39,509 nt of DNA from Rhizaria sp. SCN 62-66 (Eukaryota), in contig MEDY01000058.1 of the NCBI GenBank assembly GCA_001724265.1, positions 62,001 to 101,509 of the forward strand, written 5' to 3'. The notes beneath the pieces are model-generated. The model was given only the letters and a program-made list of their open reading frames with translations, searched no databases and was not told the DNA's origin. Positions 4,435 through 36,600 of the stretch are shown here, piece by piece. Each line of letters opens with the position of its first letter. Position 1 is the first letter of the stretch. A program made the translations under genes and the position numbers.

Positions 4435-4437
4435 TTC

Positions 4438-8823: not shown

Positions 8824-11391
8824 ATGAATTTCTCTGGTTTATACCAGAGCACTCACACACATGAGGAAAAGATGCAACGTATCCATGCCGCACTGGCTCC
8901 ACTAATCGCACTTTCGACGAATCTTGACCACCTCCGCATATTCCGGGATATCGTGATGTAGAACGCCTTTAACGTCGCTCCGCTGGCCGAGGCCAACGTT
9001 GTGAGCGTGCTTTCGGGATTGCTTGGTCTTTCGGGTGATCAGGATTCTGCTCAGCGGTGCGATCTCGTTGTTGAGATGTTCGATCGAATCACGGGCGGCC
9101 AGTTCCGCGTCGAGGCTGGGTGCGCCATGCTTGCTGGGAGCGACGCAGTCGGGAAGCTGAGCAGCTACCTTCTTACAGGTCAAGATGACAAGCTTGCGCT
9201 TCGTATTCTCAGCCTTGTGAAGTCGATCGCTGCGTCTCCAGCGCTCGGTGCTCCCGCCAGGCACAGTGCGCTGACCACTTTGCTAGATTACTCATATCAG
9301 CTGCAACAACCTCAGCAGAGCAAGCAACAAGCGCAGTCGGTTGCCGTGAATGACAACGAACAGCAACCGTGGTCGATGCAACTGGGCGTTTCCCGAGTCC
9401 CACTTGCAATGCAGTGCCAAATGAAGCTTTACGAAGTCGTCGCCGAGCTCTGTATGCAGTGCACCCCGCCGGTGCCGTACGCCGTCGTCTCAGGATTCGT
9501 GCCCGTGCTGCTCGCTGCGCTTGAGCGACACGCGGGCGGCACGCAGGATATCGATGATGGCATTTGCTATGCAGCGTACGGCGCTTTGTGCGGCGTGTTC
9601 ACGCCCGGCAGCGAGGCTGACGTCGCCGACTTCGCGCTGAGCGCCGCCTTCGACCCCTTGTTGCGGAGCCTGGTGGGTCACAAGACCTTGGCGTTGCTGC
9701 TGCACTGTGTATCTGTGCTCGACGCCGCCGCGCTCCGGCGCGTCCTTACCGCGGAGCGCCAGGAGGTCTTGTGCGCGGTACTTAGCGCCAGCCGCCACAC
9801 ATGGACGCAGTGGACGATGAAGCCGCTGACGGAGCTGGTCTCGCGCGTCGCGGCCAGCGTTCCTGCTTTTGCGCAACTGTTTATCGACGGACCCGGCCTG
9901 GCGTTGCTGTTTAGTACAATTGTCTCGAGCTACCGCGCGTTCCAACCGTCCGACGGCGCAAGTCTGCCACGGCACTGCGCCTCTCTGCTCTCCAGTCTGC
10001 TGTCAGCGGCCGCGGCGTGCGAGGATGAGCCGCGCGCGGTGCAGCGCATGCTCGACAGCGGCGCCGTGCTCTGCTGCTGCGCGCTCCTCAAGTCGGCTGC
10101 GATGTGGAGCGGTGGCGCCGACAACCCGCCGGACAACGCACCGAGCGCAGACGCGGTGGGGCAGCTGCTGCGTGCATTGTGGGCGTTGATTGGTGTGAAC
10201 ACACGCGCACGTGCATGCTCCGTTTTACCCGCTGGTGTTGCACAAAATGACGGCACACTAGCCCCTCCGTCGCAACCACGGAGTCCCTCTGCTTTAGACA
10301 GCTTTCGCATGTGCCGCGGGCCACATACGCTTGAGATGCTGTGCTACGCCGACTGCATGACCCAGGCCGACAGCGGGCCCGCGCTACGCGAGCTCGGACG
10401 GCTCGGCGCGCTGCTCTAGGCCCAGTCCGTGCTCACGCCCGCCGCCGCGGCGGACAGCGCGGAGGGAATCGCGCTGCGCCGGCAGGCGGTCGTAGACGCG
10501 AATGCGTTCGCGCAGTCGAGCGTGGGCGGCTGGACTGACGCGTTCGACGACTACATCGCATGCGCATTGGAAGAGAGCGGCTATCCGCGCAAGCTTTTCT
10601 ACAACATGGTATCATCCCTGTACGAGCCGTTTGTGTCCGCTCCTGTGCGGGCGAGCGGCGCGCCGTCCGCGGCGGCGCTGTCGCTCCTCCAGGTCCGGGC
10701 GCGCGAACGTGTTTTTGCCAGCTTGCAGGGGCAGTTTGGCGCGAAGCAGCCGGGGGATGTGGTGATGGCGTCCCAGCTGCTCAACGCGCAGACGGGGCAA
10801 CGCGACGAGTATCGCATGGTGATTCGCTTGAATGATGGTCAGTTTCCCAGTCACGCGGCGCACTTCCGCGTTGCGACGCAGGTACGCGCGCTTGGCACGC
10901 ATCTGCACCGCTGCTTTGTTCCCCCGGGCGAGACTGCTGCGTCATTGCCTTTCGTGACGCTCTACAACGGCAGGCCCGAGGCCGCGTGCGCAGCTTGTCC
11001 GCTCGCGCTGCCGGAGAGCGACATTGTCTACGGCGAGTACACTGCGCCCGGCGCCGATGTGATCTACCCCGCTGGAACGGTGCTATTTTACCCTCGCACG
11101 TTCGTGCCCATGTTGGTTCGTGGCGCTCCGCCGTGTGACACGCCTGTGTTCTTCGTGTTTAAGCCGTGCAGTGCGGCGCTGCTGCGCGGGGCCGTCCCCG
11201 TGGGCCGTGTGCTGTCGTGCGTGCCAGGTACGCAGCCCACGGCACACGACGACGGTGCGCCGTTTACCGATAGCAATGCACAGCCCTACGACGCTGCGGT
11301 GCTGCAGTGCTTCGAGGCGCTGTGCAAGGGCGATAAGTGCGCGAGTCACCACATCGATGTCGTCTCAGTCAATGCGTTTGTTTCATTGTGA
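8824..11391 (+). CDS. ARM-like + degenerate cyclophilin-like protein (paralog B, ~855 aa) containing two in-frame TAG codons (8959-8961, 10417-10419)
   Basis: One frame from ATG 8824 (or 8872) through the track ORFs 9001..10419 and 10429..11391. RIHAAL upstream of the first TAG and ESGYPR / HFR / CFVPPG / LPESD.VYGE / VFKPC...LRGAVPVGRV downstream of the second all match paralog A. Ends TGA. Confidence 0.8.
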
Positions 11392-12067: not shown

Positions 12068-12442
12068 ATGCTCCGCTCCCTCCGCGTTGTCTCCGCCCTC
12101 ACCAAGGTGCGCGCTGTGCCTGCCGCCTTCCCTGTCGTCTCGGTGTCTTCCCGCAAGTTCTCCGACGACTCGCGCAACTTTTTCCACGACTACGCCGCCA
12201 TTACCCGCCGCGTGACGACCGTTGTGGAGAACTTTGACCGCATCGACGCGGCCAACAAGGCCAAGATCGCCCCCGCCGCCAAGTTCAACGCCGACCTTGG
12301 CCTCGACTCGCTCGACTCCGTGGAGCTCGTGCTCGCTATGGAGGACGAGTTCGGCCTCGAGATCTCTGACGCCGACTCGGACAAGTTCACCAGCATCGAG
12401 GACGTCGCCAAGTTCATCGCTGGCAACCCCTCCGCCAAGTAA
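12068..12442 (+). CDS. ACP1: Mitochondrial acyl carrier protein (NDUFAB1/ACP1 type)
   Basis: Phosphopantetheine site DLGLDSLDSVELVLAMEDEFGLEI; R/S-rich presequence lacking acidic residues; ends TAA. Confidence 0.95.
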   Translation: MLRSLRVVSALTKVRAVPAAFPVVSVSSRKFSDDSRNFFHDYAAITRRVTTVVENFDRIDAANKAKIAPAAKFNADLGLDSLDSVELVLAMEDEFGLEISDADSDKFTSIEDVAKFIAGNPSAK

Positions 12443-14073: not shown

Positions 14074-15681
14074 TTACTCGAACTTGCGGTTCTTAAGCTG
14101 CTTCTCGATGCGCTCCTCGTCCAGATCGACCTGCTTGGCCTGCGCGAACTGCTCCACGGCGGACTTGACAAACATGCCAATCATGAGCAGCACAAACCAG
14201 CCCCAGGTCCACTTGAGCCAGCCCTCCTGCTCGGCCTCGGCTGCCGTCGCCGCTGCGTTGACACCGAACTTGGTGACAGTGCTGGCGATGCCCGCGCGCA
14301 CCTTGTCGGCCACCACGGGCGCGATGCGGTCCGTGAAGCTCAGAAGCATCTCGCGGTGCGGCGTGGAAAACATCAGGATGAAGAACGCGGCCTGACCGTT
14401 GACCTTGATCAGCGCCTTGCCGACCAGCGTGCCCAGGAAGAAGGTCCAGAAGGGCATCAGGAAGTGGCCGCAACACATGCCGCAGAGATCGAACAGTGCA
14501 TTAGGATACGCCGAGAAAGCAAGCACGCCCCAGAAGCCGTAGGACTTGATGAACTTGATCATCCAGACCTTCATGGCGTCCACGGCCGTCTTGGGCGGCG
14601 CGTCGAGATCGATCTCCTCAAACTCGTCGTTACGCTGCCCAGCCTCGCGCGCTGCGCGCGAGATCCAGTACGGGGGGATCTCGCCCACGGCCGTGCCGGC
14701 GCCCCAGAGCAGGCACGGGATAAGGACCTTAAGGAAGATGGCCGCGAAGGACGCCGCGGTGCCCGCGGGGGCGGGAGCGGAGCACACAAAGGCCGGGGCG
14801 GTGTCACGGAACCACATGTCAGCCAGGGAATCGAACGAGACGTTGCCGCACTCGTTGGCGGCCAGACACACGCGCATGATGTGGGGGAAGAGGAACAACA
14901 CGCCGGAGTGCATGCCGGTGCCGAAGCCGATGGATGAGAGGACGCCGAGGCCGATCCACCACACCGCGACCTCGACCGCCTTCTCCAGCAGTGCGCAGTA
15001 GACCTGTGGAGAGGGATAACAAATATACAGGTTTAGGACGAAGGATGAAGCATATAGTGAGTGAAAAGTCGATAAATTCATACAAAAACATATCATTACA
15101 TCTTTTAATTGAACAATACTTTAATTGATGCGTCTAAGGCAGAGATATATGCTGTTTAGTCTATGTGAGTGTGAGTATGATATTGTGCATCACCCAGCTG
15201 CTGAGATACGTACCTGGTGGGGGCCGGCGACCATGGATCCGAAGGCCCAGAGGGCGAAGACGGGCAGCACAAAGAACTTGGTGACGGGGTGCGAGGACAG
15301 GAAGACGAGCAGCGCGGCGCCCTGCTCGGCGATGACCATGCTGATGTTGCGCAGGGTGACGAGGGGGGAGTGGAAGAGGGTGATCTCCTCGCGCGCCGCC
15401 TTCAGGCTCGCGAGATACTCGACGGGGACGGAGGCCGTGGCGGCGTCCGTGCGCACACGGTTGCCGAAGGCGTCGGTGGTGTAGAGCCCCGACGCGCGGT
15501 CCGCCAGCGTGCGGTCGTACACGGCCCAGTTGGAGAGGTTCTTGCAGCCGCGCGCGACGAAGAGGAAGACGAGCACGGCCGCCAGCACCGCCGCGCCCAG
15601 CACGACGGGCTCAAAGCGGGAGCCAGCGCCCACAGCCGCGGGAGCGAGGGACAGCACGAGCTGCTTGAAGTGAGCAAGCAT
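14074..15681 (-). CDS. VMP1: Vacuole membrane protein 1 (VMP1/TMEM49, DedA/VTT-domain), 2 exons: 15681-15214, 15003-14074; ~465 aa
   Basis: WWIGLGVLSSIGFGTGMHSGVLFLFPHI, WGAGTAVGEIPPYWISRAA, PNALFDLCGMCCGHFLMPFWTFFLGTLVGKA; ends TAA. Confidence 0.93.
15004..15213 (-). other. Spliceosomal intron, phase 0 (VMP1)
   Basis: CAG|gtacgt ... ccctctccacag|GTC; AT-rich; joins GPHQ to VYCALLEK. Confidence 0.88.
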
Positions 15682-15914
15682 GGTGCTGTGAGCGGATATT
15701 GGGAGTGAAACTAGTTAGCATCAGTGGTGAGAAGGGATACGGTGTGCAAAGGACATTGTAGCGATTTCAAACGGGTTTTCATTGCGTTAAAATTTAAAAT
15801 ACATGTTAAATGCAACATGGAGTATAATAATATTGCTATTGCAGACAACTTCAAGAAGAGATCCTGACGGAATAAGCTCCCGAAGATCGTGCTAGTTTTG
15901 TGTGGCGGTTGGCG

Positions 15915-16376: not shown

Positions 16377-18575
16377 ATGGGCGCGACGTGTTCCAAGTCG
16401 GACGGCGGCTCAGACGCCAACGGCGGCGTGTCTGTTGACGTGCACCGGTCCAAGGTGGCGCGCACGACCACGCACGGCTGGGTTGACGCGCCGGACCTGA
16501 CGCCCACGGTCACCACGGGCGACACATTCAAGATCGTCTTCCTGGGCTCCGCAAAGGTCGGCAAGACCTCGCTCGTGCGCCGTTGGGTGCAAAACGCTTT
16601 CGACACTGAGTGCTACACGCCGACCGTGCGCGTGGACATTGTCTCGCGCATGGTCGCCGTCAAGAACACGATCGTGAACCTCGAGGTGTGGGACGCTCCC
16701 TCGCACCCAGATGTGCGCGACCACATGCTCGACACCTACTACGACGGCGCGGACGCCGTCATCCTCGTCGGCGACGTGCTCCGGCCCGCCTCCTTTAAGG
16801 ACCTGGGCGACACCGTCATGGCGCGCCTCACCGCGTACTGCGGCCTTCACTACAACGAAGTGCTGCCCCTGGTGGTCATGTTGGCCAACAAGAAGGACCT
16901 ACAGGAGGGGCCCGCGAGCGCAGTCATGTCCGAGGAGGTCTGCCAGATCACGGCCGAGACCTACGGCGCTGAGCGCGCGTTCCTGACTTCCGCGCTGACG
17001 TCTGACCGCGTGGACGACGCGATGGAGTATGTGCTCGCGCAGCTGCTGCAGCGGCCGCAGCGCGTGTGGCGCGACGCAGACGAGACCTACCTCGCGCGCG
17101 CGGCCGAGCGGCGGCAGAAGGAGGCCGACGCCGCCGCGCTTGCCACGAAGCAGCAGGAGGAGGCCGACGCTGAAGCCGAGCGCGAGCTCGTCGCGGCCGC
17201 CAAGGCACAGCGCCGCGCGCTGGGCCTCGAGGTCGAGGACTCAGACCGCTCGGACGAGTTCGACGACGAGGACGCCATCGGCGACGAGCTGGGCGACAGC
17301 AACGGTAAGCTCGGCGGCGGCGGCGGCAGCGGCGCGCACGTGGCCGACGGACGCGACTCGGACTCGGACTCCGAAGGCGGGGCCAACGGCGCGGGCGGCG
17401 CCTCCAAGCGCCCCCGCTCCAGCGAAGGCAGCACCAACGGGGCCAACAGCGGTGGCAACGCCGCGGGACCCAACGGCAGCGCGAATGGCGGCGGGCTCAG
17501 CCGCGCACCATCAGCGCAGCGCCGCCGCGGGAGTAATCCTTTCGCGGGCGTCGTCGCGCTCACGCTGCCCGGCGCGCAGGGCTCCGGTGCCGTGCTGCGC
17601 CGCGGCAGCGCGGGCTTCCTGGGCCCCGCCGCGCTCAATAATACGGGGGCAGGGGGCGACTTCAGCCAGTCCGGCCCCGGGCTGGGCCCCGGCTCGCGGC
17701 CCGTCTCGTCGGGCCACGGCGTCGGCCGCCGCGCATCTCTATCGGACCTCAACAACAACAACTCGGCCGCCGCAGCCGCTGCGGCCGCCGCCGCGTCCTC
17801 GGCCGAGTCCGGCGGTGGCGTTGGCGGCGCGCTGGCCGGCGGCGGCGAAGGCGGGCTGCGCAGCAACATGGGCGGGCGGCGCGGATCGCTGCGGCGGCCG
17901 CAGAGCGGCGAGTACGTGCCGCCGTCGTCCGCGGCCGGGACGAAGCGCGTGGTCATCAGCGACGCTGTGGACGAGCGGAGCTTCGTCAAGGACCACGGCG
18001 ACGACAGCGACGACGGCAACAGCGACGATGACGCCGTTAATAACAACTCGAGCGCGGCCTCCGGCGTCAAGCCGTCTTCTTTGCTTGCGATGAACGAGGA
18101 CGCCGGCCACCACCGGGACCAGGGCAGCGACAACGACGACCACCACGACGACCCCGAAGACGACGGCGACGACGCCGAGGCCCTGCGCGCGGCCACTCCG
18201 CCCTCGGCCGCGGCCTCGGCGCCCGTGTCGGCGTCGGCGTCGCCCACCGCGGTGTCCCCCGCGCCCTCGCCGGGCCCCGGGCCGGTGTCGCCAACCAACC
18301 ACGGGCGCGGCCACAGCGGCGGCGACGCCCATGGCAAGCCTGCGGACCACGGTGACGATGGCTTCGACCAAGACGATGATGATCGCGACGGCGGCGACAC
18401 CGGCGACGGCGCTAGCGCGGGCGCGAGCGCGGCGGCGACGACCGAGGCCGCGAGCAACCACCACGACGACGACGGGGACGATGACAACGCAGAGGCCGAG
18501 GCTGCGCCGGTGGCTCGCCACCAGGAGGAGGAGCGGAAGGGCGGTGACGCCGACGACGGCTTTGATGAGGAGTGA
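16377..18575 (+). CDS. Atypical Rab/Ras-like small GTPase with N-terminal acylation signal and ~500-aa disordered tail
   Basis: FKIVFLGSAKVGKTS (G1), YTPTV (G2), LEVWDAPSH (altered G3), NKKD (G4), TSAL (G5); N-terminus MGATCSK; no C-terminal Cys; ends TGA. Confidence 0.85.
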   Translation: MGATCSKSDGGSDANGGVSVDVHRSKVARTTTHGWVDAPDLTPTVTTGDTFKIVFLGSAKVGKTSLVRRWVQNAFDTECYTPTVRVDIVSRMVAVKNTIVNLEVWDAPSHPDVRDHMLDTYYDGADAVILVGDVLRPASFKDLGDTVMARLTAYCGLHYNEVLPLVVMLANKKDLQEGPASAVMSEEVCQITAETYGAERAFLTSALTSDRVDDAMEYVLAQLLQRPQRVWRDADETYLARAAERRQKEADAAALATKQQEEADAEAERELVAAAKAQRRALGLEVEDSDRSDEFDDEDAIGDELGDSNGKLGGGGGSGAHVADGRDSDSDSEGGANGAGGASKRPRSSEGSTNGANSGGNAAGPNGSANGGGLSRAPSAQRRRGSNPFAGVVALTLPGAQGSGAVLRRGSAGFLGPAALNNTGAGGDFSQSGPGLGPGSRPVSSGHGVGRRASLSDLNNNNSAAAAAAAAAASSAESGGGVGGALAGGGEGGLRSNMGGRRGSLRRPQSGEYVPPSSAAGTKRVVISDAVDERSFVKDHGDDSDDGNSDDDAVNNNSSAASGVKPSSLLAMNEDAGHHRDQGSDNDDHHDDPEDDGDDAEALRAATPPSAAASAPVSASASPTAVSPAPSPGPGPVSPTNHGRGHSGGDAHGKPADHGDDGFDQDDDDRDGGDTGDGASAGASAAATTEAASNHHDDDGDDDNAEAEAAPVARHQEEERKGGDADDGFDEE

Positions 18576-18935: not shown

Positions 18936-20993
18936 TCACCATTGCAGCTGCTCACTGTCATCCGCGTCGTACACGGGCGCCGGCAGCGGGTCGTTCAAGA
19001 AGAACCCGTTGTCGCTGATATAGCGCAGACACTGCAACACCTTGCTGTACTCCTTGGTGACGTCGTCCGCGAAAAGCTTCCGCAGCAGCGACACGCTCGG
19101 CGGCGGCAGCTCCCTTTCCCCCGCGCCGCCCCGGCCGCCGCGCCCGCCGCCGCGCCCGCCGCGGACACCGGCGCCGCCGCGGCCGCCGCGCGCGGCGCCG
19201 CCGTTGCCGGTGGCGGCTGCGACCGCGGCAAGCTGCTGCTGCGTGTCGCGCAGCGAGTCCCAGGTGAGCGCGCGGGGTGCGCCCGTGGTCTCCTCGAAGC
19301 CGGCGGCCCCCAGCAGCAGCCGCTCGGGCGCCGCCGAGGCCGAGGCCGCGGACCAGGGGTTCAGGCGGGATAGTGATAACAGGCGCGGCACAGCGGCGTT
19401 GGCCGCGGCCATGGCGGCAGACGCGGGTGATGCCGATGTCGGGGCTGGGGCTGAGGCTGATGCGGAAGTTGAGGTTGAAGTTGAGGGCTCGCTTGCAGAA
19501 GTCTCGGTCACAGCTGCAGCCGCGGGGGTTGATACGTCGTTGTTTGAGAGAGCGTTCGTGTCCAATGCTGAGACTGCTAAGAGGGCAGCTGTGGCATCTG
19601 CCGCAGTCTCTGTCTGAGGCTGGCCAGTCTCGCTGGTGTTGACAGAGGTGTCTGCAGAATGACCTGCCTTGTCAGCGTCATCACCGGTCATCGCTGTGGC
19701 GAGACCAACTGCGGTGAGGTTGCCAGCATCGGCACTGCTCGGCGTCGCTGTGGCGTCGTCACTGCTGGTCACAATCTCATCGCCATTGCCTGCACTGGTC
19801 ACATCAGCAGCACCTGCAGCGGAAGCAGCGTCGCCCTTGTTGTTGCCGTCACGAGAAACCTTCGTAGGCTGAGCCTGAGCTTGTGATTGAACAGACTGCG
19901 ACTGCGCCTGTGGGACCAGCGGCGCGATGCGTGGCGGCGGCGGCGGGCCGCGCAGAGGCAGCTCCACCGGTCCCCTGTCGTCGTCGCTGTCGCTGGGGCT
20001 ATCGTCACCGTAGCACGACAGGCCCAGCAGCACTCTGCCGGCCTTGCTGCAAGAGTCCGAGCCCAAGCCCGCAGCACCAGAGCCTGAGCCTGAGCCGGGC
20101 TGTGGCGGCCTAGGCTGCCCCTCGCTGTCGTTGCTGTCGGTGCAGCTGCTCTGCGTCGCGGCATCGGCACTGATGACCGTGGGCCGCGGACGGCGGGGGT
20201 ACTTAGCCCTGCGCTCGGCCATCCACGCGCTAAGGGCCTCGGGGCTGCCGTCCGCGGGCAGGCGCGAGAGCAGGTCTGCAGGCACGTCGGGCGCGGGGAA
20301 AAACGGCGGCGGCCGGCGGCTGGCGTTCACTGAACTGTTATGAACAGGAGCGTTTGCACTTGCGCTTGCGCTTGGGCTCGATGAGCTAGAGCTAGAGCTA
20401 GCGCCGCAGCTGGAGCTAGGTGCTGCGACAACTGGCGTCGAAACTACAGTCGTGGTGGGGGCACTGTTGTCGTCGTCAGGGGGAAAGCGCACGTGGCGAG
20501 CAGAATCGCCGTTGTTGCTGTTGTTGCAGCTTTTGTTGTTCTTGTTACGCTGCTGCTGCTGCTGATGCTGTTTGCCATACTTCGAGTTACCATTCGCGCT
20601 ACTCTTGTCCGTACCTGGAGACAATGCCACTGTCGATGCCAAAGCATTGCTGCTCGCATTAGCGCCACTGTTGCTGTTGCTGTTGCCGTTGCTACTGCTG
20701 TTGGCCGAGTTTGTGCGTGCAAAGAACGTCGTCGAGGTCAGGAAAGACGGCGCGGGACGCATAGGGCCGCACGCGACGGCCGCGGCAACGGGGCCAGACA
20801 CGGGCCCGCTGGCCACCGCGGCAACACCGCCGGCCGCGGGGGTCGGGGAGTGCGCACGCTAGTGCGACTGCGAATGCGTCTGCGATTGTGTTTGTGAGGT
20901 GGTGGGTTTCTGGCCGAAAGAAGAGGGCTGAGATGGGGCAGCACCAAGGAATGGCGCTGCAGCAGCGTTCATAACTGCGGCCCAGTCCGTCAT
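18936..20993 (-). CDS. NUFIP1/Rsa1-like box C/D snoRNP assembly factor (~685 aa) with one in-frame TAG (20859-20861)
   Basis: SPEALSAWMAERRAKYP resembles the NUFIP1/Rsa1 PEP motif, and the C-terminal SLLRKLFADDVTKEYSKVLQCLRYISDNGFF resembles the NUFIP1 C-terminus. ATG 20993 (MTDWAAV...) is in frame with track ORF 18936..20816 across one TAG. Ends TGA. Confidence 0.72.
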
Positions 20994-21939: not shown

Positions 21940-22836
21940 ATGAACGTCAAGCTCTTCTACGACACGCACGGGCGCTTCCCGTCGCAGCACGAGTTCAAGA
22001 TGCTCAAGGAGCAGACGCTGGCGCAGCAGAACCTGCGCCAGCAGCAGCCCTCGGCGCCCGAAGAGAGCGTTGAGTCGCAGTGGATCTCGGCTGCGCGCAC
22101 GGGCGACCTCGCCACGCTCAAGCGTCTGCGCCCGCAGATGCGCTCGGTCGATGAGCCGATCAACAACGTGACTGCGCTGGCAGTGGCGGCGCAGGGCAAC
22201 CACGCGAGCTGCGTCGAGTTCCTCATCGACAACGGCGCCGCCGTCGACCGGCGCACGCCGCAGGGCCGCTCGCCGCTGCTGTACGCGGCCGAGTCGGGCC
22301 ACTTTGAGCTCATGACGTACCTCATCAACCGCGGCGCGACGCACTTCACGTACACGGACCAGCAGTGCGAGTCCTACTTCGTGTCGTACGTCATCCGCCA
22401 GTCAATCACGCGCCGCGACGTCTCGCGCGCGCTGCAGGACAACACCGTCACGGCCATGGTGCTCGAGTACCTGTCTCTGGGCGGGCTTAAGGTGCGCCCC
22501 ATCGAGCGCCTATCGGCGCACGTTCTGCCGAACACGCGCAAGAAGCCTGCTCCGCGCCCGAAGCCCGCAGCCGCTGCCGCTGTCAACGCGGGCGGAAACG
22601 CCAACGTCGCTGCCGGGGCTGGCGGCGCCGGGGCTGCGGCATCCCCCGCGGGCGAGGGCGCTGGTGACGGCGCCGCCGCGGGCGCGGGCCCCGAGGTCGA
22701 GGGCGAGGGCGACGACGGGCGCGATGGAGCCGACTCGCGGTCCGCGTCGCCCGAGCTCCACGAAGAGGGCGACGAGGCTGATGCCGCACAGCGCCAGAAG
22801 GACCTCGACGAGGCCATTGCCGCCGAGCGCAACTAA
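21940..22836 (+). CDS. Ankyrin-repeat protein (~298 aa)
   Basis: AARTGDLATLKRL, TALAVAAQGNHASCVEFLIDNGA, GRSPLLYAAESGHFELMTYLINRGA; first in-frame ATG at 21940; ends TAA. Confidence 0.88.
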   Translation: MNVKLFYDTHGRFPSQHEFKMLKEQTLAQQNLRQQQPSAPEESVESQWISAARTGDLATLKRLRPQMRSVDEPINNVTALAVAAQGNHASCVEFLIDNGAAVDRRTPQGRSPLLYAAESGHFELMTYLINRGATHFTYTDQQCESYFVSYVIRQSITRRDVSRALQDNTVTAMVLEYLSLGGLKVRPIERLSAHVLPNTRKKPAPRPKPAAAAAVNAGGNANVAAGAGGAGAAASPAGEGAGDGAAAGAGPEVEGEGDDGRDGADSRSASPELHEEGDEADAAQRQKDLDEAIAAERN

Positions 22837-23963: not shown

Positions 23964-26900
23964 TTACTGCGTCGCTGCCATGTGTGCGATGGGAGAGTAG
24001 TGCGCGTGTTTGCCGACCAACAGCGAGGATGGAATCGCGCGCAGCGCGGGCCTTTTTGTCGTCTCTTCGTCATCATTCTGTCTATTCCCGTTCGCGCCTC
24101 TACCATTGTTATTGTTCGCGTTGTTGATGAGATTGAGGTTGTTGTTGGCCTCTGCAATGTGCTGCGAAAAGGACCACTGCTGCTGCGGCTGCTGCTGCTC
24201 CGGCCACGCTTGATACAGCGCCCGGCTCCGCGACGCGTGCAGCGCGCTCGCGCTCGCAGCAGGCCCCGCGCCGTCCTGGCTGTAACCTTGGTTCAGGTTC
24301 AGGGGCTCGCTCGGCGGGTTTTGGTTCGGGCCGGGCACGACGCTGATGCTGCGGGACACCGACGGCGACCGCGGCGTCAGCGGCGACGCCTGAGACTGCG
24401 GAGGCTGTCCACCGCTGCTGCCGCCGCTGCCTCCGCTGTTGTTGCTGTTGCTACGCGCCATCGCGCCCGCGCCGGTGATCGCGCCCGTGGCGGCAGCGAT
24501 CGTGATGGGCACCGCCAGCTGCATCGTCGGATACGGCGCCTGCCCGCCCCCGTTGCCGTAGCCCGGGCTGCCGCCGCCGAACGCGGGGCTCGGCTGGAAG
24601 CGCGGGCTGAACTGCGTCTGCGGCTGCGCTGCCTGCGCCGACACACGCGGCGTCGGAGGTTGCGACTGCGGCTGCTGCGGCGGCGGCTGCTCTTGCTGAT
24701 CAGGCTGAAACGAGGGCTGAGGCGGCGGATGCGAATGCGACGACGCCAACTTGCGCGGGCTCGACAGCGCTTGCGGCCGCGACGGCGACGGCGGCTGTGG
24801 CTGCAGCGGCGGCTGGGACTGGGGTTGCGGCCGCGCCGGGGACAGCGGCGGCTTCGGAGGCTGCGCTTGCGACTGCGCCGGTGGCTTGGGCTCAGGCTGC
24901 GAGTGCAGCTCCGGCTCAGGCTGCAGCTGCAACTGGAGCTGCAACTGCGGCTGCGGCTGCGGCTGCGGCTGCGGCGGCTGTACCTTCGTTGGCGAGGGCT
25001 GCGAGCGCGGCGACGCCTTGGGCGAGAGCGGGGCGGCCGCCGCCTTGGTGCCAAGACCCGGGCTCTGCCGCTGTTGCTGCGCCGCCGTCACGGCAGCGGA
25101 GCCGAGCCCCAGCTCGACTGCGGCCGCGGCGTCACTGTCGCTGATGTTGACCGTGACGATGTCGCTCAACGCAACGTCCCCCGCGGCGTCGGCGGCGGCC
25201 GCGGTGTCGACGGCGTCAAGCACCGATAGCGGCGCCGGCCTCGCGCGGTGGGGCCGCGCGCGCTTCTCCGAGCCCGACGGCGGCCGCGGCTTGCGCGAGC
25301 GGCCCGCGCTACCTTCGCGCCGCGCTGCGTGGCTGGGACTGGCACTGGGATTCGCGCTCGCACCCGCGGCCACGGCTGCAGCGGCCTCGCTCGGGGGCAA
25401 GCTGTCGTGGGGACTGAGCGGGTTGAAGCTGGGCCCGTAGATCCTGCGCTGGTTAGCGATGTGGTTGGCCCACACGGCGCGCTTGTACGCCTCGTCGTCG
25501 TTGGCGTTCCACAACGCGGGGTTGATGCCCGACGCCAGCAGCGTCGCCGCGTCCATGTACAGCGGTCCGTCCTCCAGCGCGGCGTCGCTCGGCGACAATG
25601 GGCCCGCCAATGTGCTGCCCCAGCCGCCGTCCGTGGCGCCACTCTCGCCGCCGGCGCCGCTGCCGTCGCCCAACCGGCGGTTACGCCCGCCCTGCGACGC
25701 CGCGATGGCGGCCGCGGCCGCGGCGGCCGCCGCGGCGGACTGCGGCGCCGGCCCGCCCTTGCCGCCGCCAGAGAAGAGCCCCGGCGGCGGCCTGTCGGGG
25801 TCGTAGTGGGCGAGCGAGCGCGTGCTGGCGGGCACGCTGGTGCTGCTGTGCGCGAGGTTCTGTCCCGCGAGGAGCCCCGCCGTGCTGCCGCTCGCGGCCA
25901 GGCCGCCATTGGCTACGGGGCTCGGCGGCACCGCGGGCGCGGCGCGGTTACGCGGGGAGCCTGGCGCGGCGCCAGCAGCGCCGCCGACGCTGGCGTTGGA
26001 GCTGGAGCGGACCGCGGCGGCGGAGGGTCGGAGCGCGCCACCGCCGCCGCCCGCCGCGACGCCAACGCCGATGGCGTTGAGGACGGCGGCGTCGGCCACA
26101 AACTCGCCGTCGCCCTCGCCGCCCGCGCCGCCGCGGCCGCCCGAGGAGTTGGCGGCGGGCTCGGCGGAGAAGGAGCAGCAGCGCGCACAGAAGCGGCGAC
26201 AGGGCCCCGTGAAGAAGAAGTAAATAACCGCACCGATAATCGCGAGCGCAATGATGATGCAGATAGCGAGCACGACGTACGACATCGGGGGCTGGAGCCC
26301 GAAGAGACTGTTGCCGCCGCTGCTGACGCCGTCGGCGTAGACGCAGATGCCGGAGTAGCACTGGCCCAACCCGGGCTTGGGACCGTTGCCCGAGTACGCG
26401 GCCGAGGAGCCCGAGGTGGTGGTGGGGGAGCCGCACGGCATGCCCTGCGGTGTGGCCACTATGGTGCCGTTGGACACGGGCGCGCGGCACTGGGTGATGT
26501 CGTCGAGCAGCGCCGACGTCAACGAAGTGCACAACACTTGCTCGCACTGGCTCGTTGAGTCCTGCAGCGGGCAGCGGCGCAGACCGCCCAGTGCGCACGT
26601 GGCGTCGAGCGACAGGCAGTCGCCGTGGTAGCAGCGACCTGAGTTGTCGGGGAAGTCGTCGGGCGCGGTCGCCACTGCCAGCGGCGTGCAGACCTTGCCG
26701 GCGCTGGCGTACGCGTCCGGCGGGCACGCGCCGGAGGTGCCGCTGCACATCTCGGCCTGCGCAGAGCGCACGACAAAAAGTATCAATAATCATCACGTTT
26801 CATCAGAGACAATTAGGTGAGATAGAAACAAGCAATGAACGAACTCATAATCGAAGATTAACCCAGGGATGAATGAGTTCTCAAAAATGAAAAGTACAAT

Positions 26901-29900
26901 ACACGCGTTGTGATCAAGTAATGCACTATGTTCGACGTACGGTGTCGCAAAGCGGGTGCGCAGCCGCGCGGCAGACGAGTTTGTCGCTGGCGGGCACGTA
27001 CGAGCACTGGTCGCAGCAGGGCTCCGCGTTCGAGCACTGGCTGCCCGTGGTCAGCATGCACAGTTCCGGTACGCAGCATGGATCAGCGGCGCAGGCCTCC
27101 GAGCCCGCGGCGCCGCAGTCGCACTGCTCGCCAGCCTCGGTGATGCCGTTGCCGCACACGACCTCGGACCAGGACTCGGTGGGGATGTTGGCCAGACAGG
27201 TCGCAACGCCGTTCGGGTCCGTCTCAAACCAAGAACGCAAAAACTCTTTCGAACACTAAAATGAAGAAGAAAAAAAAAAGTATACAATGAGGAACTACAA
27301 CTTAAGATACAAGACCAGTAGGATCTCGAACTGGGGCGATAGTGCGCGCCATTGTTAATGAATATAATCTGACGGACCTGTGAGAACTCGGTGTAGGCCG
27401 ATGTCGAAGATGCGTAGGTGGACATGATCTTGCCCCCAGCAGGGCATGTAATGTTATTGTGGTCAACAGTAATCATATACGCGGGAGTACCGTCGTGCGG
27501 CATGCCGAACGTGTGGCCCAGCTCATGCGCCACGACCATGCCGAGCATCGATTCGCCGAAAACGGCAGGAATCGCCTAGTGTACGAATGTTGTGAAAAAG
27601 AATCGTGAATAAATAAAATTTAATGAAGAGAAAATCAGGCATGTGTCGTGCGAATGATGCAAAACGATTGATGTTCATAAGTTTGGTGACATCATTAAGT
27701 TGACACTTCAAAGTTGAAAACTACTCACAGCATGTTATGCGTGTGTTCGGCGTACCTGAGCAATGGCGCCGGAGTAGGCGTCGGTGCACATATCATCCAG
27801 CTGCGCGAGCCCAACGACCTGATCCTGGAAGTACTGCCCCGACAGCATCACGCGCGAATCACACGGCTTGTCCGTCATGGACGACGGGTTGGAATAAACA
27901 AGGAACTTCTGCAGAAACTCCAGCGAGCCGATTTCTGAGCGCTTGCGCGTGTTGGAGTACACGGGTGCGACATACAATAAGGCCGGGAGATCCAGCATCA
28001 CGGTCTGTCCGACGAGCACGACGCGGATCGCCGGCGCGAGCTCGTTGCTCTCGTAGAGCCCGTCGACGATGTTGGCCACGCGCGCGCCGGACCGCGCGAC
28101 GAGCGTGGCGTTGCCACTAAACAAGGCGAGCCGCGCGGGATCGTGGTACATGTGCAGTTCCACGTACTGCTGCGCCGTGGGCACGGCCAGAGGGGACCAG
28201 GGGTACCGCCGGAGGTGCGACGTCGCAGTGGGAATCCCGGGGGGTGAGCGTCGGGCAGGCTGGACACGTGCGCGCGGCTGGTAGTGGCTGTGGCGGGACG
28301 CAGCGGTCGCGGCAGCAGCAGCAGCACTGGCACTGTTGCCGTTACGCGTGTTAGCAAGCGTGCTGAAGCCAGAAGAGCGGGCAGACGCGGCGTCAAGAGT
28401 GGCAGTAATGTCGGCAGTAATGTCGGTAGCATCATCGCTGTGGCTGTGGTCGTGCCCCCGAGCGTGACCGCACCAGTGCACGTCGGCTTCATTATCGTCT
28501 GCTGCATCGTCATCGTCGCTAACACCTGAGACAGATCCAGAGTCAGCACCCGTCCGCGCGCTGACAAGACCTTCGCTGCGGTCTTTGCTCTTGCTCTTTT
28601 TGTCCCGGTGGGCGTTTATAAGGGCGCGCAGTTCGTTGTCCTGCTCCGCCAGGCGCTGCAGCACGTACGAATCAGCGCCAACCGCACGCGGCGGCAGCAG
28701 TGTGCCAGCGCGCGCGCCCGCGACGGCGGCCGCGTCGAACGGCCGCGGGTCACTGCTGCTGGGGCCGTGATTGGTGCTGGTGCTTCGAGTGCCCATCGAC
28801 ATAGATGAGGAGCCCGAGCCGGAGTTGGAATTGATAATCATGTCGGTGTCGGTAAACAAGAGGCGGCGCCACATATTGTTGTTCATGTTTGCCTGGATCT
28901 TGTTGTAGCTGGAGCTAGGACTGGACCTAGCTTCAGAGTCAATGTGGTCCGAAGCATCAGTGCCCGGCGCAAGGTTCGGCAGCTCTTCACTAACGCTGGC
29001 ACCCGCCGAGTCGGAAACTCGCACAGCAGGCGCGACGTCGTACAGCTCCCCGTCGATCTTGACCACGCCGGAGAGCGCGCCGCCGCAGACCGATACGGCG
29101 GCGAAGCCGTGCGCAACGTAAAACGCGGCGGCATCGGGCTTAGTCGTGGACGCACTAGCGGCGCCAGTGTCGCGGTCGGCCAAGTCAGTGCCTTCGCTGT
29201 CAAACGCGACGACGTCGGCGTCATCGCCACTGGTGTCGCCCGTATTGCTGTTGATCGGCTCTAGCACGCGGCCGCGGTAGTGGCAATTCTCGCCCGGCTG
29301 CAGGGCGTAGGCGCGCTCAGTCCTCCCGTGCGCGTCAGCAGGACTCGTGTTGTCGCTGCCGCCCGCGGTGCTGTGTGTGTCCAGAGGAGACTACTTGTGC
29401 AAAGCGTACGTAGGAGCAAAGAGCACGTCATTACGCTGTAGCTGCAGCAAAAACGTGCGCTATTGGGTTGTCGCGGCGTTGACATCCGTGGTGTTGCTTG
29501 CCGTCGGGATATTCAGAGTGATTGTGATCGCAACGTCAGCCTTGCCATGAACGCCCTCCTCGCCGTCTTCACCAATGACATCCTCAATGCCGTCAGTGTC
29601 GGAGTTCGGGACCGAGGCAGTGCGGGCAGCGTGGCCGCGGCGGAAAAACTGCGCCCAACGCCGCTCCGAGGTGCGGCGGCGCAAAGCCAACGCATCAGTC
29701 GCTGTGCCGGCGCCAGAGGCAGTAGAACCCGAGGTTGAGGCAGAGATGGAGGCAGCACTCGCTGTGGTTGCGAATGGCGAGGTGGCAGCAGCATCGGCGT
29801 TGCCTGAAGCGGAACGACGCACGCGAGGTACAAACTGCACGGAGAGCGTTGCAGGATTAATGCCGATAGGCAGTGGAGTGGTTGCAGCGAATGTAACAGC

Positions 29901-30017
29901 TGGTGCGAATGCACAGATGGTGGCTGCAAGTAGAATTAGCGACCAAGCAAGCAGATTCCGAGGGGGACCCGCGCCGCCGAGCAACGGGCTCGATGGCGCC
30001 CTTTGGGCTGCAGACAT
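23964..30017 (-). CDS. ADAM-family (M12B reprolysin) membrane metalloprotease, 4 exons: 30017-27756, 27575-27378, 27255-26941, 26756-23964; ~1855 aa; two in-frame TAGs (29460-29462, 29391-29393)
   Basis: Signal peptide; prodomain motifs FLLQLQRNDVLFAP, NCHYRGRV, AAVSVCGGALSGVV; cysteine-switch-like HWCGH; zinc motif HELGHTFGMPHD; Met-turn KIMS; FSQCS; disintegrin CGNGITEAGEQCDCG...CDTAEMCSGTSGACPPD; Cys-rich region; TM YVVLAICIIIALAIIGAVIYFFF; long P/Q-rich tail; ends TAA. Confidence 0.9.
26757..26940 (-). other. Spliceosomal intron 3 of ADAM, phase 0
   Basis: ACC|gtacgt ... gcgcag|GCC restores CDT-AEMC. Confidence 0.9.
27256..27377 (-). other. Spliceosomal intron 2 of ADAM, phase 0
   Basis: CAG|gtccgt ... 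ttttag|TGT restores EFSQ-CSKEF. Confidence 0.9.
27576..27755 (-). other. Spliceosomal intron 1 of ADAM, phase 0
   Basis: CAG|gtacgc ... cactag|GCG joins SGAIAQ to AIPAVFGESMLGMVVAHELGH. Confidence 0.85.
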
Positions 30018-30699: not shown

Positions 30700-33600
30700 T
30701 TACACAACCACAGACCTGAAATGTGCGTAATTTGTCTCGCTCACAGCACGGTGACGGATGGCATTGCTGTCTGGTTCTGCCCTTTCAATAAGGGCAGGGG
30801 CAGTCATAGCTGCGACTGGTGTCACTGTTCCGCGTTGCCGCCGCATCTCGTGGCTGTTGATACTGGATTTGTTAAGGTCTCCGCTGACGAAGCTCTCGGT
30901 GACAAACGCTGTCTCCAGCGGCAGCGGTACCATTGGCACGGAGAGGTCAGTGTCTGTCGGGACAGCGCTAATAAGACTCCCATCCGTGCGTGTGCGCCTT
31001 GGCGTAAGCAAATCGCTCCTACCGTCCTGGTTACTGTCAGAGGCATTACGCGTGTGTCTCTCATCAATAGCATGAGCAGAGCTCCCGCCGATGTTGATAC
31101 GCCTTGGTTTGTCAGAGCGACGCTCTGAAGTCGCAGCATCTAACCCCGCACTTGCCCCTGCGCTGTTAATGCCGTGTATCTCTGCAGCGTTTGTGGCAGG
31201 TAGTGTCGGCGTTGTTACTGTAACGCAGTGGGCCATGCCGCGGCCCCGCGCGATGACGCGGTTGCGGCTCCAGTGCCCCGCTGAAATCAAGACGCCGGCG
31301 CCAGCGTCAGCTTCAGCACAAGTTTGCCCAGCAGCTGCATTCACGCGGACTGAGCTGCCGCTGTCTGCAAGAAGGCCTGTGGTTGTATGTAATGAGGTGA
31401 CTGTGATTGCATCAGGCATGGTGCACCCAATACTGCTGCCGCCCCAACCTTGCTTTGTTAATTGTTGCTGCCACGCCTCTACAGCAGCAAGGGCGCCTGC
31501 TCCAGTTGGTTTAGTCCTTTCGGTGCGAGCGCTGGTCACCTCAGTGTCGTGGCTAAGTCGATTCAGTCGGTCCCCGCGCACAGGTAAAGGGCTCGACTCA
31601 ATCGGTGTTAGTTCACAGACGACACGCAGAAACAGCTCGCCCGGCGGTCCGCGCCAGCTTGTGGCGACAGCCCACTCCTGTGCCGTCATTGCGTGACTGC
31701 GACTAGTATGCATATGACCACGTGTGCTCATGGTTACATCACGATCAAATAAGCAATGGTCGGCTGTTGATAGAGGTTCAGCCGAGTCTGTGATTGCCGC
31801 GATGATAAAATTGGGATCGGGATGACCATTTGCGCCACTGTTGTGGGGATGACTATTGCGTGCATTTGTGTGAGCAAGAGCACGACGCCGATGACTGCCA
31901 GTTCGTGGTTGCTTCCTTGAGACAGTCGCGACAACATTCAACATCGGTGACATATGCACTATCGTGGCAGCATTGTTGCCACGAGTTCCACTCGCAACAC
32001 GGCTGTTGACATTACAATTGACATCGCCAATGTCTCTCGTTGACATGTGTTTTTGCCAGTATGCTGTGTTGGAATCACGCTGTAACACCCAATTACTGAC
32101 ATTGCGATGGTCGCTTGTTGTGGCGTCACTGTCTGTGTTACGACTATCACGATCGTCGAGATAAGAAATTACATTATCACGCTGCTAACTCAGCGTGTGC
32201 GTCCAAGCCCGCCATTTCACCCAGCGACGGCCGAGTCCAGCGCTCGCACCAACGTTACTGTGGCGGGATACACGGGAAGTACTCTCTCGGCTGCTCCGGC
32301 CAAAGTGTTCGTGGTTGCCAGAACATACGCTATCACCATTGGTTGGCGGAGTACCAGAGATCTCCCAAGGCGGGACGTCACTAACACTGCGACAAACAGC
32401 GTGGTATAAAACACCGCCATACATGAACACTCGCCGATTGCGATTTCGGTCATGGGTACCACTTTTATCAACACTTTTGACGTATTCGGCAATACTTGCA
32501 TTCAATGTGCTATTACTGCTGCCGGCAGATGCAAATAGTGGTGGCAATGCTGTTGACATGGTATCGCCTGGCTGTAGCAGCATCGCACCAGGCAGCGATG
32601 TAACAGTGAGCGAAAATCGCTTTAGGCCAGTGACTGTGTGAGGAAGCTCTGTAACGATAGGCGCTGGTGTAGCAACTGCGGGCATCGATGGGGGAACCAG
32701 TGGCACTGATATCACCGTGGGCTCTGATGTCGCTGTTGAGCTGGCTGTAATTATCGGGGTGACTGTGAGCAGTGAAGAGACATCGGTTGGTTCCCAGTTG
32801 CACCAACCGATAGTTCCACCGCTGTCAAATGCACCGCCGTCTTGACGATTGCAAACCGCGCTCGCTGTATCATTCTGACTGCAGCACCCAGTGGTGGCGT
32901 TAACGCAACTGTTTAGCGTAGCGGGAACGGTAGATTCTATACTTGAGCAACCCAAAAACGTGCCATCCTTAAGGCTGCTTGTTGTGTTAGCATCAGTTTT
33001 TGGAATTAATGTAGTTAGCGTTGTGCTTGTCCCTGTGTTAGTTCCATAAACAGCAGACTCAAGCGTTTGCGTCAGTACGCGCAGCGCCGCTCGCGGCCAG
33101 TGTTGCGCTAAGACATCGCTAACAGGCACACACCGGTACGCGCAGCCACAGGTATCCGCAAAACCCGAATTGTTACTCGAGACGCGTCCGCGGTGTGCGT
33201 GTGCTCGATCGTGTAATAGCTCGAAATCGGTGTCGTTTACAGCACCGCTCTCTGCGAGGTTCTTATTGGCGTCATCATCAAAGGGCTCTTGCTGCTTCTT
33301 CTCAAGAGCCTGAGCGGCGCTGAGTCGAAGCGCGTTGGCGCTTCCGGCCCATACGCGCAGGCGTTGAACGCGTGCGCGCTGTTCTTCTTGAGCTGCGCTA
33401 CCGATGACCCACCAGCCACCTTCACGACCAAAACTGCTGGAATTTGCCGTGCCACAGGAAGTTGTGTTAGAATAATTGCTAGCATCCCAATTACTGCTGT
33501 GGGTGACGTTGTCGGCGAAGTTTAAGTGGGTGCTGCTGCTAGAATTCGACGTAAGTTCTGTTTGAATAGGAAATAGAGTACACACTGGCGCGTTGCCGTT

Positions 33601-36600
33601 CACTGTTACAGTTGGCGTAGGAAAATGCAACACTCGGGCACATTCCTGTTTGCAATTGTTGTCAGGACTTGAGCTATGATTGCAGTCGCGTTCAACGGTA
33701 GTGACATTGAAATTACCACAGCCCCAGCCCCAAGTTGGCGGCACGCTATGGCTAACTAGACTTAACTCCGATCGCTCTAAAGATGCAAGCGTAACAACAT
33801 CAACTGCATGTACATCTTGCCTCAGTGTGTTAGCTCCATAACGTAAGCTATCAACGCTGAATTCACTAGCGAGGTCTGGCAATATTGACTTGAGACGCAA
33901 GCTGGCGCTGCTAACGTTATCGTGCCTGTGACGCAGCATGCAGGGCGGCACAGCGGGTACGCGTGAAGGAATATAGAGTGCTACAAACCCCTCTAAGCTC
34001 TCAACACTTACATCACCTGCATCTGCACCAAGAATATTGCGTCCAATCCATGGTGTAGTTGGATACCGGAGTGGCAGCGGTGCACGTGGCATTAGTACAC
34101 TCTCGCACACAAAGTTCAGCCGTCCTCCTAGTGAGCGTGTACGCAGCCTATGCCCAAGGCCCGAAGTAAGCTGCGCAGTTAAGTCGGCTGCTGCGAGTAC
34201 CTCACGAGCAGCTGTCCCATTTAAAGCTGTTGATGCCGCGATATCTCGCGAGTTGCCGGCGTGATCTAAGTACTTCTTGGAGCGCCGCAAGTAATCAGAG
34301 CGCATCGCACGGGCTCGTTGTTGTAATAGCTCTGTCAACGCCATTTTAGCGTCAACAGAAGTAGAGTCATGGGGTACTGCTGTTGGTGTTAAAGGCGTTT
34401 TGAGCGTCGGAATCGGAGCCGCACCAAACGGACTCAACATTGTATCGCGCTCACTTGCCGCCACTGCCGCAAACTCAAGCATTTGCGTAAGCAAGCGCAC
34501 ACTTCGTTTCTCGTGTCCCTCTCGCAACTTAAGCCCCACTGCAGCAGCCACATCTGCTGGAAGCCCACTGGTGATTCGGCGTAACCGACTATCGTTGCTC
34601 CAATTGCTGTCAGTGCTGGGGTTATGCCGATCACTGTGTCGTGTGTTATTGTTGTATATAGCCGCCAGAGCAAATGCGGGTGCAACACTAGTATTAGAAG
34701 CTATGCTGCTCTCAACAAAATCGGTGTCGCGCAAGACAGGAGGACCGTGATCAACGTTGCTATAGTATCGACGTCGTGCGCGCTCAGCAGCATCCTCCAT
34801 TGTGCTCACGACCTCGTCGACAACGCGTGCAGTAGTTTTCTTATCATCAAAGATGCCATCGTCATTAAACGGCTCTATAATGGCAGTGCTCTCAATTGGA
34901 ACACTCGCACTGCCGTTGTTCAAAAATGTAGCAAGTGTTGGATTAGATCCGTAACTCGCATTTGTGCTGCCATCTATAATACGCAATGGGCGAGCTGTTG
35001 CCGCAGTCACGATTGAGGGGGGTGCTGCTTTTGCGATTTGTTGTAGCTGTAAGACAGCAGTTGCATACTTGCAAACAGCGTTGCGCAGTGTTACTCGCCT
35101 ATCACGACTGTAGCAGTGATTGCTCGACTCATTGATTTCATGATTGAGGTTAAAATTCTTATCTAACAGCATGACACAGTCGTCGGTGCGGTTGTCGACT
35201 CGATGCACAGCTGAGCTAGATAGGTTGCTCATGTGTCTATGCATGCACGCTTGGAGAAACTCATGCCGCTTCCGATGCCACTCCTGTATCACCTGATCGG
35301 CAAGAGCTGCCGCCTCCGTCGCTACTTCAACAGTTGAGGGATCCGTCTCCAAAGCCGCCCACAGAGCGCGCCGCAGCCTCAACTCGTTTTGCTCGCTCAT
35401 TGACGGACTACCCTGGTCTCCTTCTGCGCGACCGTAAGCAGCTGCAGAGGCCGCACGGCTATAGCTGTCGACAGAGTTGGGGCGGCCATGCGCAGTGACG
35501 GTTGGTGCGTCAGCACGTGGAGTATAAATAGGCGCTGTTGTGTACAAGTCAAGCACGGTCAAACCCGGAACTTCATCATCTAAATGGCTATAAGCGTCCC
35601 TTGAATTAGCGTCACCAGTAGAATTACTAGGAAATCGGTGGCTTTCGTCCCAAACGTGTGCGGTGGCGCGCGAAGGCTTAGTGACTGTAAGCGCAGTCAT
35701 TGCAACTTGGTTTCCGTTAATCAAACAGTACACGCGGCTTGTAAACTCCGGTAGCGGTGACTGCTGCAGTTTGCTTGTTGTTGCGACAGAGGCGGCCCAA
35801 TCAAGAGCTGAGCGATGACGTCCTCTGGTCGTGTCTTGTCGTTCTGATGAATACTTTGGAAGTGTGTTGGGTAACGCAATACGAATCATTGTGCCGGTTG
35901 GGAGCACAGCGCCGCTTGCTAGGGGATAGCTAACAGTCAGCGTAGCGCGCGATAGCGTCGTCGGGTCCTACAAGATAACGCATATCGCAAACCATACATT
36001 AGAATATGAATGACTAATAATATTGCTTCTGTTGTTGCAACATCGACATGCAGTGAGGTATCATCAGGAAGATAAGATATGTTGAAAATGTCGGCGATGT
36101 TTTGAGTTGACCACACTGCATCAACGTACCCCGAACGACAAACGTGCACTCGTCACGACTTCGGGGACAGGCATAAGCGCTGGTCCTCCAATCGTATTGC
36201 TATCATTTTCGCAAGCACCATGAGTGCTTGATACATTATTATGGACAGGAAACATACAATTAGTCGTGTTTGTGGATGTGTTTGCTGCGTGTCTCCTCTT
36301 GTTGCCCGCAGTCTTTCGCCAGTAGTAATCGTGTTCCTCAATCATAGGGACTGCGCTTGCTCCAACAACAACACCTTCAGCCGCCACAGCCGCCACGTAC
36401 GCCTATGAGCCAGCACCGGCAACACCCTTGAAGTCACGGAAACTGCGGCTGTCACTGCCACCGAAATCGCCACCCGCCCGGCCTCGGCCAAGGATGTACG
36501 TCACGAGAAACGGGCCGCATACGGTGCTAAACGGACTGCCTCGGTGCAAGGCGCGTGTTGGTGTGAGTAACATCAAGCCAGAGTTGCTGCGGCCAGTTGC

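Follow-up and report, generated by a model that had tools for sequence, protein, structure and literature searches.

Seven In-Frame UAG Codons in a Nuclear Contig From Bioreactor and Wastewater Samples Suggest That UAG, Uncoupled From UAA, Is Read as Sense

Introduction

Can a nuclear genome read UAG as an amino acid and still terminate at UAA? Nuclear UAA and UAG nearly always change their meaning together. The question is raised by 39,509 bases of contig MEDY01000058.1, deposited as Rhizaria sp. SCN 62-66 (the window, hereafter, is this whole stretch), in which a first-pass annotation had marked seven TAG codons that interrupt otherwise open genes. The window is eukaryotic, and each of its strands carries long reading frames that are rich in GC. 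The organism, uncultured and poor in introns, is known from metagenome runs of bioreactors and wastewater alone, in several studies.

In this window, in-frame TAGs are flanked by conserved, intact coding sequence. The best explanation, to which we give a probability of about 0.65, is that the organism decodes UAG as an amino acid, with termination left to UAA and UGA. The ribosomes would then insert an amino acid at UAG, the codon would be read by a transfer RNA (tRNA) with the anticodon CUA or by a strong near-cognate tRNA, and the release factor eRF1 would recognise UAG poorly. The strongest arguments are the conservation of a protein family downstream of the TAGs, the contrast between the TAGs and the genuine stops, and the difference in stop context.

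The In-Frame TAGs and Their Presence in Other Assemblies

All seven TAGs were found in the window as annotated, each with its frame open on both sides (7/7):

8959..8961, + strand: TAG no. 1 of gene B; the ATG at 8872 precedes it by 29 codons
10417..10419, + strand: TAG no. 2 of gene B, at residue 516 of 839
20859..20861, − strand: TAG of gene 18936-20993, 44 codons after the first ATG; ambiguous
29460..29462, − strand: TAG no. 1 of the ADAM-type gene, in the propeptide region
29391..29393, − strand: TAG no. 2 of the ADAM-type gene, in the propeptide region
32185..32187, − strand: TAG of the large gene; the frame is open for 1,260 codons up to it and for 494 beyond
36403..36405, − strand: TAG of gene 36121-38856, 93 codons before TGA

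Across 12 coding segments with 9,268 codons, TAG occurs seven times in frame, TAA and TGA not at all, which bears out the statement that neither TAA nor TGA remains after removal of the introns. None of the genes calls for a frameshift. It had also been pointed out that the open reading frames (ORFs) downstream of the TAGs start at GTG. This is true of all five that were listed; as an artefact of ORF finding, it shows only that no ATG follows directly.

Contigs of X3 and X4, from two other studies, carry 20859 (X3 and X4), 29391 (X3), 32185 (X4), and 36403 (X3 and X4) unchanged, and the metagenome locus L001 carries 10417. The TAG at 29460 is also carried by X3, marginally, with an overhang of only 27 bases. 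With five TAGs carried cleanly and one marginally in other data, the TAGs are not assembly errors, an origin for which the earlier annotation had asked that they be checked. None of the seven sites is covered among the listed contigs of X11, which derives from poly(A) RNA, and of X6, which is labelled as RNA.

An open frame on both sides of a TAG was rejected as a criterion by itself, because antisense frames in this GC-rich DNA also show TAGs with long open flanks, for example at 25227 on the + strand (443 and 442 codons). The sites are not of equal weight. Four of them, in two genes, are robust (8959, 10417, 29460, and 29391), 32185 and 36403 are probable sense TAGs, and 20859 may lie in a 5' leader.

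Coding Signal and Stop Context at TAGs and at Genuine Stops

The comparison with real gene ends uses the stops of the 11 genes of the window:

732-4001, + strand: patatin-like lipase gene; stop TGA at 3999..4001, then G
5694..8165, + strand: gene A, the TAG-free tandem paralogue of gene B and its comparator; stop TGA at 8163..8165, then G
8872..11391, + strand: gene B, with two in-frame TAGs and no Pfam family; stop TGA at 11389..11391, then G
+ strand: acyl carrier protein gene (PP-binding, with an N-terminal extension); stop TAA at 12440..12442, then G
− strand: VTT-domain gene (domain match); stop TAA at 14074..14076, then G
+ strand: Ras-like GTPase gene (domain match); stop TGA at 18573..18575, then G
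18936..20993, − strand: low-complexity gene, no Pfam family; stop TGA at 18936..18938, then G
+ strand: ankyrin-repeat gene (domain match); stop TAA at 22834..22836, then G
23964..30017, − strand: ADAM-type metalloprotease gene, four exons; stop TAA at 23964..23966, then G
30700..35907, − strand: large gene of 1,735 codons, no Pfam family; stop TAA at 30700..30702, then T
36121..38856, − strand: gene with a hydrophobic N-terminus and no Pfam family, which ends in TGA if the TAG at 36403 is read through; stop TGA at 36121..36123, then T

The genes thus end in TGA (6) or TAA (5) and never in TAG. Coding signal was expressed as the advantage of frame 0 over the better of the other two frames in the next 90 codons, with codon usage trained on sequence that excluded the tested part. 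After the seven TAGs this advantage ranges from +28 to +76, and after the 11 TAA or TGA ends from −39 to +24, so that the two groups are completely separated (Mann-Whitney p = 3.1e-5). Ten of the 11 genuine ends are followed by three to eight further stops. Among the robust sites, the advantage is +46.7 after 8959, and 29460 has a coding signal on both of its sides (+40.6 and +67.8).

The base that follows the stop (position +4) is G at nine of the 11 genuine stops and at two of the seven TAGs, which is near the 0.38 share of codons that start with G. At the rate of the terminators, the probability of two or fewer G among seven is 0.003; the direct comparison gives Fisher p = 0.049. In this organism, the strong +4 G context could help to recognise where genes truly end. 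After the genuine stops, the G is followed by C in six of the nine cases (GCG five times and GCT once).

Position +4 also bears on the possibility that the code is in general standard and that a few genes use programmed readthrough of UAG at particular sites. Coding does continue in frame past each TAG, and three of the seven are followed by C, the +4 base that favours readthrough in other eukaryotes. The seven sites have no common downstream motif, however; the codons next to them are AAC, GCC, CGT, TCT, CGC, CAG, and GCG. Known programmed readthrough yields a C-terminal extension and does not rescue the body of a protein, which counts against this explanation, and the losses would be compounded if one gene had two such sites, close to the N-terminus of domains that are essential. 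Readthrough of this kind is very improbable here.

Gene B and Its Protein Family

The most direct evidence for a sense UAG comes from gene B. It aligns with gene A over the full length (32% identity, E 8e-104), and the alignment passes both TAGs with no frameshift. A search restricted to the conserved part of gene B found 21 relatives, all of them metagenomic, with 31-51% identity. At the column of TAG no. 2, all 22 other members of the family are continuous and have a residue. The family has 81 conserved columns, of which gene B retains 77, or 95%, against 81-100% among the members. The number of conserved columns downstream of TAG no. 2 is likewise 77. The first ATG after this TAG falls inside the conserved block, so that a restart there would not rescue the domain. 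The TAG at 8959 sits between an N-terminal motif, which is common to gene A and the relative P0099, and the remaining protein; its column is filled in only two of the 22 members (C and R).

The family itself (P0097-P0117 with genes A and B) has no Pfam match. Conservation is high in a C-terminal block, about 250 residues long, which has invariant Cys, His, and Gly/Pro positions. A copy from a distant relative lies on a 2.4-kb contig (L002:270-860), where a frameshift is needed near 480-530, and this copy may be a pseudogene or the contig may be poor. It has a TAG six codons before its TGA, in a column that is Gln in both paralogues of the window, and this TAG is uninformative.

The residues of the family also speak to another explanation, in which the code is standard and the premature UAGs are corrected in the messenger RNA (mRNA) by adenosine-to-inosine (A-to-I) editing, UAG becoming UGG (Trp), as in filamentous ascomycetes. 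Trp occurs in none of the 22 members at the column of TAG no. 2. The restriction to TAG would be accounted for, as TAG is the only stop that a single A-to-I change makes sense. The fungal editing prefers U at position −1 and hairpin loops and often affects UAG (PMC11156358). In the window, the adenosines of five of eight in-frame TAGs lie in predicted hairpin loops, but there is no enrichment, since off-frame TAGs of the same genes do so in 43 of 92 cases (47%). A fungal genome such as that of Fusarium has roughly 14,000 genes. Restorative editing of premature UAG concerns 71 genes in the whole genome of Fusarium graminearum (PMC10776026), against up to five of 11 genes here. The ascomycete cases are alike in that the DNA looks like an amber-only pseudogene while the fungi make a full-length protein; they differ in that editing is stage-specific, affects a small share of the genes, and leaves TAG a normal terminator, whereas TAG ends none of the 11 genes here (PMC10776026, PMC11156358). 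The organism also falls outside the fungi in a single tree of its lipase. Editing is quite improbable as the source of the pattern.

The ADAM-Type Protease Gene

The other two robust TAGs, at 29460 and 29391, lie in a protease gene with four exons, listed in the direction of transcription (− strand):

27756-30017: exon 1
27378-27575: exon 2
26941-27255: exon 3
about 23964-26789: exon 4

The N-terminus of the protein is hydrophobic. A Reprolysin domain (PF01421, E 2.3e-7, with matches to related families) is split over exons 1 and 2 and has the zinc-binding motif, and a Disintegrin domain (PF00200, E 3.9e-11) in exon 3 is above the cut-off. A match to the propeptide family PF01562 is weak (E 0.0078, below the cut-off); it starts at 29460, and 29391 lies inside it (residues 79-145 of the fragment). 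The order of propeptide, Reprolysin with zinc motif, and Disintegrin is that of the ADAM or reprolysin proteases (M12B), with the reservation that the propeptide match is weak. After 29391 the frame remains open for 551 codons into the Reprolysin domain. The three GT..AG introns are in phase and no frameshift is needed, and the sole defects of this gene are its two TAGs.

Tyr was considered for 29391, because animal ADAM propeptides have an aromatic residue at this position; it scored 17.8 bits against 19.7 for the best residue, and no assignment was made. An exhaustive search for homologues of the prodomain among 1.84 billion representatives gave two matches, both of them the window's own pieces, and the prodomain had no match in the PDB. 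A contig of X11 (26618-26873) spans the presumed boundary of exon 4 and intron 3 unspliced; the X11 library may hold DNA or unspliced RNA, or the acceptor site may be misplaced.

Weighing a Sense UAG Against the Standard Code

Several observations weigh against a sense UAG, and they are gathered here with two further explanations. In the first, which keeps the standard code, two amber mutations apiece have made gene B and the ADAM-type gene young pseudogenes, 36403 is a terminator, 32185 separates two genes in the same frame, and 20859 belongs to a leader or an upstream ORF. Since gene B duplicates an intact gene in tandem, it is an obvious pseudogene candidate, and its conservation could be compatible with a very young one. 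The context of 36403 (TAG GCG) resembles that of the genuine stops, and this TAG could be an ordinary terminator. At 20859, the 40 codons upstream score +1.0, which is no coding signal and suits a leader, and the sequence downstream is strongly coding (+51.8). If the three sites are read in this way, the count of no TAG among 11 ends collapses. Furthermore, the conserved genes for the patatin lipase, the VTT-domain protein, the acyl carrier protein, the Ras-like GTPase, and the ankyrin-repeat protein have no TAG in 2,574 counted codons.

The argument of the first-pass annotation that random decay would also give TAA, TGA, and frameshifts is only in part as strong as it was put. For all seven sites being TAG, the gene-wise p is 0.009-0.013 (about 0.01), as 46-48% of new stops would be TAG. 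In gene B and exon 1 of the ADAM-type gene, however, the share of TAG among new stops is 55-63%, and for the four robust sites alone p is 0.11-0.13 (about 0.12), weaker than had been implied.

The remaining evidence on decay weighs against pseudogenes. New stops arise at 0.023-0.028 per substitution, so that two stops in a gene imply roughly 70-90 neutral substitutions. Indels would be expected alongside these, going by the general behaviour of pseudogenes, and above all in the ADAM exons, which are rich in repeats. The 839 codons of gene B and the about 1,870 codons of the ADAM exons nevertheless contain no frameshift, TAA, or TGA, and gene B retains its 95% of conserved columns; the signature of decay, with mixed stops, frameshifts, and lost conserved residues, was not found. 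The coding frame also persists past 32185 (+43.8) and past 36403 (+28.1), beyond what is seen after any of the 11 genuine ends, and the +4 base of 32185 is C, unlike the genuine stops. Two pseudogenes among 11 genes would, moreover, be many for a compact genome. Young pseudogenes under the standard code are therefore an unlikely explanation, though one that has to be taken seriously.

The second explanation places the TAGs within missed introns of a length divisible by three, or at the 3' ends of such introns, so that they would be spliced out before translation. The four introns read in the window (27576-27755, 27256-27377, 26790-26940, and about 15030-15212) are about 120-180 nucleotides long. 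All four have the 5' site GT(A/C)CG(T/C), a pyrimidine-rich tract precedes their 3' end, which is TAG or CAG, and they are AT-rich, closed in all frames, and of phase 0 where this was checked; the G+C of the three in the ADAM-type gene is 36-38%. A 3' end in TAG would suit this explanation, and candidates with a consensus-like 5' site exist at three of the seven sites, namely 29391 (39 nucleotides), 32185 (144 nucleotides, ending in TAG), and 36403 (162-252 nucleotides). The annotation's check on introns is accordingly clean for 8959 (0/6), 10417 (0/7), 20859 (0/2), and 29460 (0/30), where no consensus-like GT..AG candidate of such a length exists, and not for the other three. The candidates are nevertheless unlike the four known introns, being GC-rich (0.52-0.67), open, and scored as coding. 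That at 29391 (GTACGC...CAG) is both GC-rich and far shorter than the known introns, and its stretch belongs to the propeptide match. At 10417, residues are present across the site in the family members. We give missed introns hardly any credence.

Other points touch the sense reading of UAG itself. Its support comes from a single window of 39.5 kb, in which four sites (in two genes) are robust, two are probable, and one is ambiguous; the UAG-only reassignment proposed by the first-pass annotation stands as the best-supported reading on this narrower footing. The statement that no gene ends in TAG is correct as a count, but the sample is small, with a chance of 0.01-0.09 for none in 11 if the normal share of TAG is assumed to be 20-35%, and the argument runs partly in a circle, since the reading frames were themselves set by passing through TAG. 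No amino acid is singled out, either. The 22 family members have A (10), E (5), V (3), S (2), L (1), and M (1) at the column of TAG no. 2, without a preferred residue, and rescoring of the PF01562 match with the TAGs taken as each of the 20 residues gave 16.0-19.7 bits. Strain polymorphisms (five synonymous, nine non-synonymous, and two intergenic) are too few to inform. The window encodes a single tRNA, Ser(AGA), and none of CUA type, and the gene for eRF1 is absent from the 39.5 kb.

The base composition by codon position predicts 101 TAG, 36 TAA, and 32 TGA in the 9,268 codons, and UAG is thus about 14-fold below expectation (7 vs 101). If it is sense, it is a rare codon, making up about 0.08% (7 in 9,268). 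The low usage of UAG, together with its absence from the conserved genes, fits a reassignment that is young or still partly ambiguous. We lean, by a little, towards the fuller proposal of an undescribed wastewater lineage with an independent UAG-only reassignment outside the ciliates at an early or ambiguous stage, with UAA and UGA as stops and a strong +4 G. The site at 36403 is the place to look for residual termination at UAG.

Comparison With Known UAG-Only Codes

The first-pass annotation had named Iotanema (Gln), the rhizarian exLh (Leu), and phyllopharyngean ciliates as lineages with UAG-only reassignment, and the available parts of the primary papers agree (PMC5304391, PMC11687900). 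The literature consulted, supplementary tables aside, gave no case of UAG reassignment in stramenopiles or sludge protists.

The exLh, a sainouroid from Lygus hesperus, reads UAG as Leu and stops at UAA and UGA; 384 in-frame UAGs were found in 71 genes, which end in UAA (56) or UGA (15) (PMC5304391). In that study, 82 of 86 hyperconserved UAG sites correspond to Leu, eRF1 was examined, and UAG was rarest in highly expressed genes (PMC5304391). The window resembles exLh in that only UAG is found in frame, in that genes appear to end in UAA and UGA only (5 and 6 here), and in coming from a protist that is not a ciliate. The absence of UAG from the conserved genes of the window is likewise similar to the UAG-poor highly expressed genes described there. 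It differs in having seven TAGs in about 11 genes, and Leu is among the lowest of the PF01562 rescores (16.4 bits; a weak indication). The window also has a weak stramenopile and not a rhizarian signal, taken from a tree without a labelled rhizarian, which is no test of the point.

Another case is Iotanema spirale (Fornicata), in which UAG is Gln and in-frame UAGs are of moderate frequency, with 204 in 126 genes and ends in UAA (104) or UGA (15) (PMC5304391). The uncoupling of UAG from UAA is shared with the window. Iotanema is described there as an anaerobic gut fornicate that is known from transcripts, while the window has GC-rich genes and a perhaps mitochondrial acyl carrier protein with an N-terminal extension. 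Gln is not singled out here, in contrast to Iotanema (18.4 bits vs 19.7 for the best residue, and none of 22 members at the column of TAG no. 2).

In phyllopharyngean ciliates, UAG is Leu (three uncultivated taxa) or Gln (Hartmannula and Trochilia), and suppressor tRNAs have been proposed as the mechanism (PMC11687900). They are similar to the present case in that the change concerns UAG only and was found in metagenome-derived DNA. They are described as preferring UAA as stop, whereas TGA (6) and TAA (5) are both used here. The GC-rich genome, the introns of 120-180 nucleotides, and the ADAM-type protease are unlike a ciliate.

Implications of a UAG-Only Reassignment

If UAG is sense in this organism, it would be a further member of a known rare class, with an apparently early stage added. 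Another such change, in a protist that is unrelated, GC-rich, and free-living, would mean that UAA and UAG come apart more often than has been assumed. With its sparing use of UAG, the organism would be a natural system for the early use of a stop as sense, including the tRNA, the change in eRF1, and the first genes to accept the codon. This early or ambiguous stage is the point of dispute between the "ambiguous intermediate" and the "codon capture" models. Gene callers that use the standard code cut genes at every TAG, and the protein databases returned only such pieces, one of them recorded on a contig of 120,861 bases, so that the proteome would be under-annotated.

Further Features of the Window and Its Relatives

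One RNA gene was found in the window by ARAGORN and Rfam:

4353-4435: tRNA-Ser(AGA), 83 bases

The two large genes at 30700-35907 and 36121-38856 show no paralogy to one another (best E 0.62). Further DNA of the organism or its relatives was sought in a metagenome scan, which yielded just two contigs, L001, with 3.7 kb of the same sequence, and the 2.4 kb of L002. Scans of prokaryote genome contigs and of viral contigs gave nothing.

The relatives of the patatin-like lipase have 70% and 52% identity, and those from named organisms only about 40%. In a quick single-gene tree of this lipase, the window and two other sequences stand beside diatoms and a pelagophyte (Shimodaira-Hasegawa-like approximate likelihood ratio test, SH-aLRT, 97). 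The labelled rows of the tree contained no rhizarian, and it is thus no test of rhizarian affinity. This one tree gives a weak stramenopile signal that is to be taken as a hint only. An insert of low complexity, about 500 residues long, interrupts the lipase (732-4001), and an orthologue (P0002, P0003; 70% identity, 53% overall) has the same architecture, so that public data already include at least one related species, on a 10-kb contig.

Some further TAGs were read as leader and left uncounted. They lie in frame upstream of the first ATG in the 16274-16276 region (Ras-like gene) and in the 35970 region (large gene), and another is positioned directly 5' of the ATG of the acyl carrier protein gene.

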